From NCBI RefSeq assembly GCF_003018115.1, contig NZ_CP027457.1: DNA of 64,000 nt; one strand, written 5' to 3'. How positions within the stretch are numbered: position 1 is the stretch's first letter; each line of letters starts with the position of its first letter. The DNA is from Escherichia coli (GTDB taxonomy: Bacteria; Pseudomonadota; Gammaproteobacteria; Enterobacterales; Enterobacteriaceae). A program made the position numbers. Below, one piece after another: positions 36,001 through 39,000 of the stretch.

Positions 36001-39000
36001 CATACTTATTTCTTCAAATGTGGATGGAAATTACACGGACGCGTACGGGCATCCAGCTGCGGCGCGATGATATTTTCCCATGCGGTACGGCACGCTTTGG
36101 TCGAACCCGGCATGGCGAAAATCAGCGTTTTGTTAGCGACGCCCGCTACCGCACGAGATTGCAACGTGGAAGTGCCAATCTCTTCAAACGACAACATACG
36201 GAACACTTCACCAAAACCTTCAACTTCACGGTCGAACAACGGCAGCAATGCTTCGGGAGCCTGATCACCTTCCGTCAGGCCAGTCCCCCCCGTAATCAAC
36301 ACCACTTGTACATCGTCGCTGGCGATCCACGCAGATACCTGAGCGCGAATAGCGTAGCGGTTTTCTTTCACAATGGCTTTATCGACAACGTGATGGCCCG
36401 CTTCTTGCGCCGAATCGCGCAAATAGTGACCGGAGGTATCGTCTTCTTCACCGCGACGATTAGAAACCGTAAGAATAGCAATACGGGTCGGGATAAATTC
36501 AGTGCTTACCTGACTCATCTGATCTCTCCTTTTGACGTTTTAGCCGCCAATGTACGATAAGTTTTGCGTAATACCGGTGTTGTTTTGATGCAGGAAATGG
36601 GTCTGTTTCTTCTCCCGCAGCGCCGCTGAAATACGCGCTTCCAGCGCCTGTTGCTGGGCATCGTCTTCCAGCAGATCGCGCAGGTTAACACCGCCTTCAC
36701 CAAACAGGCAGAGATGGAGTTTACCAATGGAGGAAACGCGCAGACGGTTGCAAGTGGCGCAGAAGTCTTTTTCATACGGCATGATAAGGCCAATCTCTCC
36801 GGCGTAATCCGGATGACAAAAGACTTGCGCGGGACCGTCGCTGCGTTGACGTAATTGGTGGATCCAGCCGCGACGCAGTAGCTCGTCACGCAGAACCTGA
36901 CCAGAGATGTGATGCTTACGGAAGAGCTCGCTGCCCTCGCCCGTTTCCATCAGTTCGATGAAACGCAGCTGGATGGGACGATGCTGGATCCAGTTCAGAA
37001 AGGTGTCGAGCTGGTGATGATTAACATCACGCATCAGCACTGTATTGACTTTGACCTTCTCAAAACCGGCCTCAAATGCAGCATCAATCCCCGCCATGAC
37101 CTGGTTGAATTTATCCTGCCCGGTAATAGCGTGAAACTGGCGGGCGTCCAGACTGTCGACACTGACGTTGATGCCAGTAAGTCCAGCATCGCGCCAGTTC
37201 GCCACATCGCGTTCCAGACGGTAACCATTGGTGGTGACCGCAATCTGGCGGATAGCGTCGTTTTCTCGCACAGCGGCGATGATATCGGTAAAGTCGCGGC
37301 GTAAAGACGGCTCACCGCCTGTCAGGCGCACTTTTTCGGTGCCCAGACTGGCGAAGGCGCGCGTAACCCGGCGAATTTCATCGACGGTCAGAAAGCCTTT
37401 ATTGGTGACGCCGCTCGGTTTGTAGCCATCCGGCAGGCAGTAGGTGCAACGAAAGTTACACACATCGGTAATCGACAGGCGCAAGTAGTAAAACTTACGC
37501 GCAAATGCATCAGTCAGTTGTGAAGCCATGTACACCTTTCCAGATACGGGAGGCGAAGTCATTTCTTCCTTCGCCCTGGTGGCAATCTTTACGAGCATTG
37601 TCACGGCCAAAGCACCGTATCAGTTGACCCAGGTGCAGAGGCTAGAGTGTTTAGTGGTTAAGCCGATACTAGCGTGTAAACGAGATTTTTACCATCCACA
37701 CTTTCGCTATGTAATCATGTATATAGCGTCATGATCGTGCTATTTCGCTACAGAATAAGGGAAAATGGCGGTTTTACTTTGATATACATCATCAGGGAGG
37801 CATAGCGTACATCGTCCTTTAGAGGTAGAAGAAAATAGTTTGTATCCTCAATATTGGCAGGTTAATTGCTGTTTCCCCGCAATTTGCGCTACTGTAGCGC
37901 GGATAATCTGACTCCAGGAAACTATATGCGCAATCGTACGCTGGCTGATCTTGATCGTGTCGTTGCTCTCGGCGGAGGGCATGGACTGGGACGCGTTCTC
38001 TCATCACTTTCGTCTTTGGGTTCTCGTTTAACGGGTATCGTCACCACCACCGATAACGGTGGCTCGACGGGGCGTATTCGCCGTTCAGAAGGCGGCATTG
38101 CCTGGGGCGATATGCGCAACTGCCTTAACCAGCTGATAACTGAACCCAGCGTCGCTTCCGCAATGTTTGAATATCGTTTCGGCGGTAATGGCGAACTTTC
38201 CGGGCATAACCTTGGAAACCTGATGTTGAAGGCACTGGATCACCTTAGCGTGCGACCTCTTGAAGCGATCAATCTGATTCGAAATCTGCTGAAAGTGGAC
38301 GCACATTTGATTCCGATGTCGGAGCATCCTGTTGATCTGATGGCGATTGACGATCAGGGGCATGAAGTTTACGGCGAGGTCAATATCGACCAGTTAACTA
38401 CGCCGATTCAAGAGTTATTGTTAACGCCTAATGTACCCGCAACGCGTGAGGCGGTTCACGCTATCAATGAAGCGGATCTCATCATTATTGGGCCTGGCAG
38501 TTTTTACACCAGCCTGATGCCAATTCTGCTGCTGAAGGAAATCGCCCAGGCATTACGCCGCACGCCAGCGCCGATGGTCTATATCGGCAATCTGGGGCGT
38601 GAGTTGAGTTTACCTGCGGCCAATTTGAAGCTGGAAAGCAAGCTGGCAATTATGGAGCAGTATGTTGGTAAAAAGGTCATTGATGCGGTCATCGTCGGGC
38701 CAAAAGTGGATGTCTCGGCGGTGAAAGAGCGGATTGTGATTCAGGAGGTGCTGGAGGCCAGCGATATCCCCTATCGTCATGACCGTCAGTTGTTACATAG
38801 CGCGCTGGAAAAGGCATTACAGGCTTTAGGTTAACGGAAATCCGAAGGAAAATTCCGGCTTCCTATTGAAGACAAAGTGCGCGTTGTTTATGCCGGATGC
38901 GGCGTGAACGCCTTATCCGGCCTACAAACCGCGCTAATTCAATGTATTGCAGAATCATGTAGGCCTGATAAGCGTAGCACATCAGGCAATTTTGCTTTTG

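Follow-up and report, generated by a model that had tools for sequence, protein, structure and literature searches.

The 145 nt closest to moaA in this stretch of the E. coli chromosome (37661 to 37517, minus strand) are almost certainly the E. coli molybdenum cofactor (Moco) riboswitch, with an architecture that fits a translational OFF switch. The element is already known from K-12, and the copy in this strain is neither strain-specific nor new in any respect. It was analysed within a window comprising the whole 64,000-nucleotide stretch of DNA, in which the start codons of moaA and the divergent ybhK (yvcK) are separated by 396 nt (37530–37925). This matches the interval of about 400 bp in which an earlier note had placed the riboswitch and the moa promoters. 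Of 5426 complete E. coli genomes, 5424 contain the interval; in a sample of 40 rows taken across the ranking, all full-length rows were at least 98.5% identical. The moaABCDE genes 3' of the riboswitch are intact, with moaA as the first gene. Two open reading frames were rejected as mechanical artefacts: a TTG-extended moaA frame starting at 37610, where the annotated start is the ATG at 37529, and a 68-codon plus-strand frame (37528–37734) that overlaps the leader.

Table 1. Features of the moaA–ybhK region, in window positions.
Feature	Position	Strand	Basis and remarks
Moco riboswitch, aptamer and expression platform	37517–37661	−	Rfam RF01055, full-length match
P1, 5' strand	37645–37659	−	Rfam alignment; pairs with 37536–37523, 8/9 model pairs canonical
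P1, 3' strand	37523–37536	−	Encloses 3' part of the Shine-Dalgarno tract and the moaA AUG
P2 with internal bulges	37606–37642	−	Rfam alignment; three mid-helix U/C mismatches, 37639–37637 with 37609–37611
P3 stem	37579–37604	−	37604–37600 pairs with 37583–37579; 4/5 model pairs canonical; 16-nt loop
P4 stem	37551–37576	−	Rfam alignment; GAAA tetraloop at 37565–37562
P5 mini-helix (CC...GG) in invariant core CCUCCCGUAUCUGGAAAGG	37540–37550	−	Rfam alignment
Shine-Dalgarno purine tract GGAAAGGUG	37533–37541	−	AGG ends 5 nt before the AUG
moaA CDS	36540–37529	−	329 codons, 990 nt, WP_001295301.1; start ATG 37529–37527
ybhK / yvcK, divergent gene	37926–38834	+	ATG 37926–37928
S1 candidate -10 hexamer TAGTAT	37666–37671	−	Sequence match; TAATAT in E. 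albertii, conserved in Citrobacter
ModE-type operator, inverted repeat CGCTATGTA-N6-TATATAGCG	37705–37728		Centre about 56 nt upstream of S1
FNR site TTGATatacATCAT	37779–37792		9/10 consensus positions, 1 mismatch to TTGATnnnnATCAA

The earlier note had put the riboswitch upstream of moaA on the minus strand by position and had named a covariance-model scan as the check, the absence of a match counting against it. The scan gave a significant match. RF01055 aligned over its full length (model positions 1–135 of 135) with 103.4 bits against a gathering threshold of 36 (E = 1.2e-24, computed for 64 kb, both strands and 4227 families), and this score falls within the range of other full-length members (62–105 bits). 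RF01055 was the sole match, with no second Rfam family in 37400–38050 even at E ≤ 1. The same 145 nt are labelled 'molybdenum cofactor riboswitch', base for base, in the PGAP annotation of an identical E. coli genome, and our own covariance model, R1, matched 37660 to 37517 on the minus strand with 114.2 bits. The element thus lies in the moaA 5' leader, directly upstream of the moaA start and overlapping it. It falls in the interval where it had been expected but fills only the moaA-proximal third (132 of 396 nt), and the proposed left boundary at 37530 needs correction: since the moaA start codon lies within the 3' strand of P1, the riboswitch extends 13 nt farther, into coding sequence.

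The five-helix P1–P5 architecture is present, with 35 of the 41 model pairs canonical in the window. Conserved junction nucleotides mark this RNA family (AGC after P1, AGGG before P4 and CCUCCC...GGAAAGG around P5), and the element agrees with them. Columns invariant across 16 gammaproteobacteria include AGC, GGG and CCTCCCGT...TGGAAAGG, of which the last served as the pattern for retrieving homologues, so that independent evidence comes from AGC and GGG only; as this retrieval pattern was the P5 core, the invariance of the core among homologues is partly by construction. At the tetraloop-receptor position, P2 reads CCUGGG...UACGG and not the canonical CCUAAG...UAUGG of the 11-nt GAAA-tetraloop receptor. 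This variant is shared by E. coli (K-12 included), E. albertii and Citrobacter, and the other 13 aligned gammaproteobacteria carry CUAAG. The presence or absence of P3 defines two groups of these RNAs (Regulski 2008, PMC2408646). RNAs without P3, the proposed tungsten-cofactor type, share the core junction, P1, P2, P4 and P5 with the window element; the window element has P3 and is therefore of the Moco type.

Comparison of homologues supports this architecture. In an alignment of 83 homologues from many phyla, fitted to the model with the structure derived from the window row, 81.6% of cells were paired, compared with 32–48% in slid controls. The covariation score was 0.476 against at most 0.098, none of 500 shuffles reached 0.476, and 32 of the 41 pairs had changes on both sides. 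P4 was paired in 91.6% of cells and P2 also covaried (helices 4–5, 83–85% of cells paired), while the P3 columns were gapped in about half of the homologues (39–51 of 83 per pair). A structure-blind MAFFT alignment of the 16 gammaproteobacteria gave 70.5% of cells paired for the whole mapped structure, against 34–49% when slid, and supports P4 and P2. From this alignment, RNAalifold recovered P4 de novo with six compensatory pairs, along with a helix of three pairs where P5 is expected, shifted by one column from the model P5. RNAalifold did not recover P1, P2 or P3 from the structure-blind alignment, where they were lost to indel misalignment; we therefore built R1 and re-aligned the sequences. 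Thermodynamic folding of the single sequence did not by itself yield the consensus fold: the minimum free energy structure (-42.2 kcal/mol) has another P1/P2 arrangement, the Rfam structure reaches -32.4 kcal/mol. With a z-score of -0.23 relative to shuffled sequences, this folding is uninformative either way, and the comparative evidence was preferred. The departure from the consensus fold agrees with in-line probing, in which P2 was poorly formed without ligand (Regulski 2008, PMC2408646).

The 3' part of the Shine-Dalgarno tract lies within the P1 3' strand, which also extends on both sides of the AUG, an arrangement that fits a translational OFF switch. Regulski 2008 (PMC2408646) predicted these purines as the ribosome-binding site (RBS; Fig. 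3 legend) and placed the E. coli RBS within the P1-forming nucleotides. In the same study, the K-12 element repressed a reporter more than 3-fold once Moco synthesis was induced; disruption of P3 (M1) caused derepression, and the compensatory mutant M2 restored repression. Since no paired position of the aptamer differs between the window copy and K-12, Moco-dependent repression may be carried over from these published data. At high levels of Moco or of a closely related pathway product, the folded aptamer would stabilise P1 and hide the RBS, lowering moaA translation and with it moaABCDE expression. Two promoters would feed the leader: S1, with molybdate-ModE as its activator, and S2, which FNR activates in anaerobic conditions. 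CsrA binds two aptamer sites and activates moaA translation (review PMC7652899), and its binding within the aptamer would counteract the repression. The aptamer holds exactly two GGA motifs (37569–37567 and 37541–37539), which are the likely CsrA sites.

We considered whether the main output might instead be premature transcription termination, either Rho-dependent or at a 3' end just after P1. In the Term-seq data of Adams 2021, a strong RNA 3' end maps to K-12 position 817052 (window 37521), 2 nt past P1. The same study reported bicyclomycin sensitivity of a region at 817336 (Rho score about 3.0) and a moaA-lacZ fusion more than 2-fold higher in rhoR66S. However, the 3' end at 817052 had a Rho score of 1.24 and was classed as not Rho-dependent ('No'; Adams 2021), and the evidence for repression comes from translational fusions under a constitutive promoter (Regulski 2008, PMC2408646). 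Other Moco riboswitches have the same aptamer joined to an intrinsic-terminator platform (Regulski 2008, PMC2408646); in the window, by contrast, a scan of 37400–38050 revealed no intrinsic terminator or terminator-like hairpin 3' of the aptamer, and control appears to run through the RBS in P1, where the Shine-Dalgarno sequence and the AUG sit. Rho termination is a usual secondary consequence of untranslated mRNA. Termination following from lost translation complements RBS occlusion and does not replace it; within moaA it probably adds to the repression. We therefore regard termination as the main output as unlikely and favour RBS occlusion. The 3' end at 37521 might also mean that a riboswitch of about 140 nt accumulates as free RNA and acts in trans besides its cis role, for example by titrating CsrA through the two GGA motifs. 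We consider this a long shot, and, if true, it would concern E. coli in general, not this strain in particular.

A leader that is a regulatory RNA without being a true metabolite-binding riboswitch, its sensor being a protein (CsrA, for example, or some Moco-binding factor), would also account for some observations. The literature consulted reports no direct in vitro binding of Moco by the RNA, which Regulski 2008 (PMC2408646) explains by the instability of the cofactor, and it still does not name the exact effector metabolite. The two CsrA sites, equal in number to the GGA motifs, could be read in the same way. CsrA, however, activates and does not mediate Moco-dependent repression (review PMC7652899). 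The fold recurs, with compensatory changes, in genomes and metagenome-assembled genomes labelled Bacillota, Chloroflexi, Actinomycetota, Deltaproteobacteria and other phyla, which argues for a function intrinsic to the RNA and not for a protein of one clade. Moreover, Regulski 2008 (PMC2408646) found no protein factor for the region and observed that RNAs with P3 go with Moco metabolism and those lacking it with tungsten-cofactor metabolism. A protein sensor thus appears very improbable, and a metabolite-sensing RNA remains our reading.

Against K-12 MG1655, the region differs by three substitutions in 461 nt, at 37809, 37681 and 37661. No paired aptamer position is changed, which makes this the same aptamer that Regulski et al. 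2008 (PMC2408646) tested and settles in the affirmative the conservation in this strain that the earlier note had left unverified. The resemblance extends to locus, strand and neighbours (uvrB-ybhK on one side and moaABCDE on the other), the Shine-Dalgarno-in-P1 platform, P3 and the GAAA loop on P4. Position 37661, at the 5' edge, is T in the window and A in K-12, is unpaired in the model, and would by mapping lie just before the S1 start, 1–2 nt upstream; strain GN04592 carries the T allele as well. The other two differences lie in the promoter region, and all three are normal E. coli polymorphism. A search for a strain-specific peculiarity found none; every difference from K-12 falls outside the paired aptamer positions. 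That the element is a decayed or inactive copy is effectively refuted by the RF01055 match and the K-12 comparison, with 37661 as its sole aptamer-adjacent difference, a full-length score in the family range and an intact moa operon.

The expectation that the interval also contains the moa promoters is supported. In the two thirds of the interval beyond the riboswitch, sequence matches to the S1 -10 box, a ModE operator and an FNR site were found, spaced as described for K-12; the ybhK promoter was not located. From the 131-nt leader (Regulski 2008, PMC2408646) and the moaA cloning primer of Adams 2021, which begins AACCAC, we infer an S1 start at about 37659–37660. The interval has a single inverted repeat reaching at least 8 nt, the ModE-type one, which is invariant in E. 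albertii and keeps 21 of 24 positions in Citrobacter. ModE operators follow an AT-rich inverted-repeat consensus of the type CGnTATATA-N6-TATATAnCG. On the basis of this consensus and of Fig. 2A in Regulski 2008 (PMC2408646), which cites Anderson 2000, 37705–37728 is a putative ModE operator.

For FNR, the published consensus is TTGATnnnnATCAA, and an FNR ChIP peak has been assigned to moaA (PMC3688515). One-mismatch matches to this consensus are fairly common in the window (8, against 3.3 expected), and TTGATatacATCAT gains meaning only from where it lies and from its conservation. E. albertii and Citrobacter retain its half-sites, and its centre would lie about 39 nt upstream of an S2 start near 37747, a position obtained purely by arithmetic from -87 relative to S1 (Regulski 2008, PMC2408646). 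A sigma-70 consensus scan of 37400–38050 returned no promoter-like sites, as expected for activator-dependent promoters. The single terminator-like match, at 37941–37928, was discarded: it is on the wrong strand, within the start of ybhK, and does not exceed chance expectation (0.6). The segment between S2 and S1 (37750–37662) had an unremarkable fold z-score of -1.55, and we claim no structured element there.

Because its paired aptamer positions are identical to K-12, this copy brings the class-level questions of ligand binding, effector and three-dimensional structure no closer. Its significance is one of annotation only: the strain keeps all three control layers of Moco synthesis (FNR, ModE and the riboswitch) as they are known from K-12.

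The divergent intergenic region between moaA and ybhK (now yvcK) spans 396 nt (37530-37925), as fixed by the two start codons, and is exactly the interval in which an earlier note, going by position, had placed the Moco riboswitch and the moa promoters. A longer moaA ORF from TTG 37610 was listed mechanically and is an artefact; in an identical E. coli genome the annotated CDS is 990 nt long and begins at the ATG. We ran the covariance-model check that the note had named on the full 64-kb window, using all 4227 Rfam families with their gathering thresholds. Two matches were obtained, one of which was a highly significant, full-length match to RF01055 (Molybdenum/Tungsten riboswitch aptamer, Moco RNA motif) on the minus strand upstream of moaA. 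A permissive scan of 37400-38050 at E<=1 returned no Rfam match besides RF01055. The refuting result named in the note, no significant hit on that strand upstream of moaA, did not arise. The riboswitch lies in the interval as proposed; it occupies only the moaA-proximal third and runs 13 nt past the left boundary into the moaA coding sequence. In strain PapRG-04-4, PGAP annotates the same 145 nt (37661-37517) as a riboswitch, with the note 'molybdenum cofactor riboswitch'. The sequence-level defining features that we tested were all found in the element, except at the P2 tetraloop-receptor position, which reads CCUGGG...UACGG in E. coli (K-12 likewise), E. albertii and Citrobacter, differing from the canonical motif. 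The element is no mere relative of the E. coli moaA Moco riboswitch: it is that riboswitch; the earlier interpretation is supported, and the finding was already known.

Positions of the riboswitch, its helices, the adjacent genes and other features in the window
Feature	Coordinates	Strand	Detail
moaA CDS	36540-37529	minus	ATG at 37529-37527
ybhK (yvcK) ATG	37926-37928	plus	divergent neighbour of moaA
RF01055 match	37661..37517	minus	103.4 bits (gathering 36), E 1.2e-24, model positions 1-135/135
P1	37659-37645 with 37536-37523	minus	Rfam alignment
P2	37642-37626 with 37621-37606	minus	three consecutive U/C mismatches at the centre
P3	37604-37600 with 37583-37579	minus	16-nt loop
P4	37576-37566 with 37561-37551	minus	GAAA cap at 37565-37562
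P5	37550-37549 with 37541-37540	minus	Rfam alignment
Shine-Dalgarno purine tract GGAAAGGUG	37541-37533	minus	
Candidate -10 hexamer TAGTAT	37671-37666	minus	
REP-type repeat	12984-13054	plus	Rfam naRNA4, RF02564, 78.4 bits
670-aa ORF	17856-19868	minus	SopA-like catalytic domain, PF13979, E 3.4e-15
DUF3969 ORF	32884-33252	minus	within ybhM replacement

We parsed the Rfam alignment into window positions to obtain the aptamer helices P1-P5; of the 41 pairs in the model, 35 are canonical in the window, and P4 carries tandem G/A mismatches below its closing A-U pair. Within P1, the moaA AUG falls in an internal loop flanked by the 37531 and 37526 pairs. From the positions of the Shine-Dalgarno tract and the AUG relative to P1, a closed P1 covers the 3' portion of the tract and flanks the start codon on both sides, the same arrangement as described for E. 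coli by Regulski et al. (PMC2408646). In Citrobacter sp. FP75, a 24-nt insertion (locus L069 ~1714-1737; alignment A5 columns 274-297) sits within the P1 5' strand, after AACCAC and between its distal and proximal parts, and RF01055 still scores 96.5 bits.

We searched for homologues using the core pattern CCTCCCNTNNNTGGAAAGG with one genome per species and obtained 120 loci spread over many phyla. Of the 20 loci checked, 19 carried full-length RF01055 matches (62-105 bits), and the window's 103.4 bits falls near the top of this range. A MAFFT alignment of 16 gammaproteobacterial copies, made blind to structure, let RNAalifold recover P4 de novo, with compensatory changes in six pairs; on it the window structure paired 70.5% of cells, compared with 34-49% when the 3' partners were slid by 1-3 columns. 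Because indels put P1 and P3 out of register in this alignment, we built a covariance model, R1, which yielded an alignment of 83 matches from 100 sources. Here, in an alignment fitted to the model and with the structure taken from the window row, 81.6% of cells were paired (32-48% slid), the covariation score was 0.476 against at most 0.098 and was reached by none of 500 shuffles, and both-sided changes occurred in 32 of 41 pairs. The slid controls and the structure-blind P2/P4 result limit what those fitting caveats could explain. P3 columns were gapped in about half of the 83 homologues, in agreement with the two known subgroups, P3 present and P3 absent. Thermodynamic folding misses the consensus (MFE -42.2 kcal/mol vs. 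-32.4 for the Rfam fold; z-score -0.23). This outcome fits in-line probing that supported most of the model except P2 without ligand (Regulski et al. 2008, PMC2408646), and also a 2025 ensemble-mapping study that placed the Moco riboswitch among regions with at least two conformations after in vitro refolding.

Four complete E. coli chromosomes match the 651 nt around the interval at 100% identity. Of 5426 complete E. coli genomes, 5424 carry this region, 5028 of them at >=99% identity, and the features annotated beneath the match are riboswitch, moaA and yvcK. Full-length E. coli alleles sampled at points down the ranking were 98.5-98.8% identical at their most divergent; one of these, GN04592, has a single aptamer change, G to A at 37568, an already non-canonical position of P4. 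Compared with K-12 MG1655, there are three differences in the 461 nt spanning the interval (37809, 37681 and 37661). Only 37661 touches the RF01055 match, at its unpaired first model position, and its T allele occurs in at least one other strain; every paired position of the K-12 aptamer is identical to the window's. The clinical isolate E. coli 774 (NZ_CP183138.1) carries an ISVsa5-family (IS4-like) element (locus L125 1279-2487) in the promoter part of the ybhK-moaA region, upstream of the FNR site at the equivalent of ~37807, with the riboswitch and moa operon intact.

As Regulski et al. (PMC2408646) relate from Anderson et al. 2000, the moa start site S1 lies 131 nt upstream of the start codon and S2 at -87 relative to S1, with ModE acting at S1 and FNR at S2. 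S1 would then start at ~37660 by arithmetic, or at 37659 judging from the moaA 5'-UTR primer of Adams et al., which begins AACCAC, and S2 at ~37747. A single inverted repeat of >=8 nt occurs in the interval, CGCTATGTA-N6-TATATAGCG (37705-37728), and it fits the ModE operator type. An FNR consensus with one mismatch, TTGATatacATCAT (37779-37792), has its centre ~39 nt before the inferred S2 start. Such matches are not rare (8 in the window vs. 3.3 expected), so the FNR assignment rests on position, conservation and an FNR ChIP peak assigned to moaA (PMC3688515). The -10, ModE-type and FNR sites are kept in E. albertii and a Citrobacter species, unlike the promoter sequence around them, which diverges. 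These sequence matches agree with the expected moa promoters. A sigma-70 consensus scan of 37400-38050 found no promoter-like site, and no ybhK promoter was identified. At 37886-37900, 26 nt before the ybhK ATG, is a perfect 15-bp palindrome, GCGCTACTGTAGCGC, kept in E. albertii and for the most part in Citrobacter. The palindrome may be an operator or belong to the leader of ybhK.

Except in three stretches, the window is collinear, reversed, with K-12 850641-807328 (97.5-98.5% identity). The ybiA region is replaced by 4.3 kb absent from K-12 (17668-21961), where the 670-aa ORF has a domain typical of HECT-like E3 ubiquitin ligase effectors and a 561-aa plus-strand ORF (20173-21858) had no Pfam match. 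In place of the K-12 ybhM region there is ~1.3 kb of unrelated sequence (32676-33940), whose ORFs are all small. Synteny ends between ybhB and ybhC, directly after the lambda att core sequence TTAGTATAAAAAAGC (47230-47244). From 47245 to the end of the window the sequence is a P22-like prophage with portal, coat, scaffold, tailspike and DNA-transfer genes; across 63% of these last 16.9 kb it is 96% identical to Enterobacteria phage IME10. Besides the REP-type repeat, a second repeat (4910-5040) resembles several K-12 intergenic sites at 81-86% identity.

The evidence on mechanism comes from the K-12 sequence, with its identical paired positions. Regulski et al. 2008 (PMC2408646) fused the 149-nt moaA leader translationally to lacZ under lacUV5. 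Expression was >threefold higher with Moco synthesis uninduced than induced, and repression required molybdate transport and Moco biosynthesis genes; it was lost in M1 (P3 disrupted) and regained in M2 (compensatory). Putatively, Moco sensing would close P1 over the 3' part of the Shine-Dalgarno tract and around the AUG, blocking moaA translation. According to a review (PMC7652899) citing Patterson-Fortin 2013, moaA translation is activated by CsrA, which has two binding sites in the aptamer. Exactly two GGA motifs occur in the aptamer, in P4 (37569-37567) and the Shine-Dalgarno tract (37541-37539), and these are candidate CsrA sites. Adams et al. 2021 reported a strong Term-seq 3' end at K-12 817052 (window 37521), 2 nt after P1 and 8 nt into moaA, scored as not Rho-dependent. 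A terminator scan found no terminator-like hairpin accounting for it, and processing, pausing or termination are candidate origins. The same study found a bicyclomycin-sensitive region inside moaA and a >twofold rise of moaA-lacZ in a rho mutant, suggesting that Rho termination probably reinforces the translational block of moaA.
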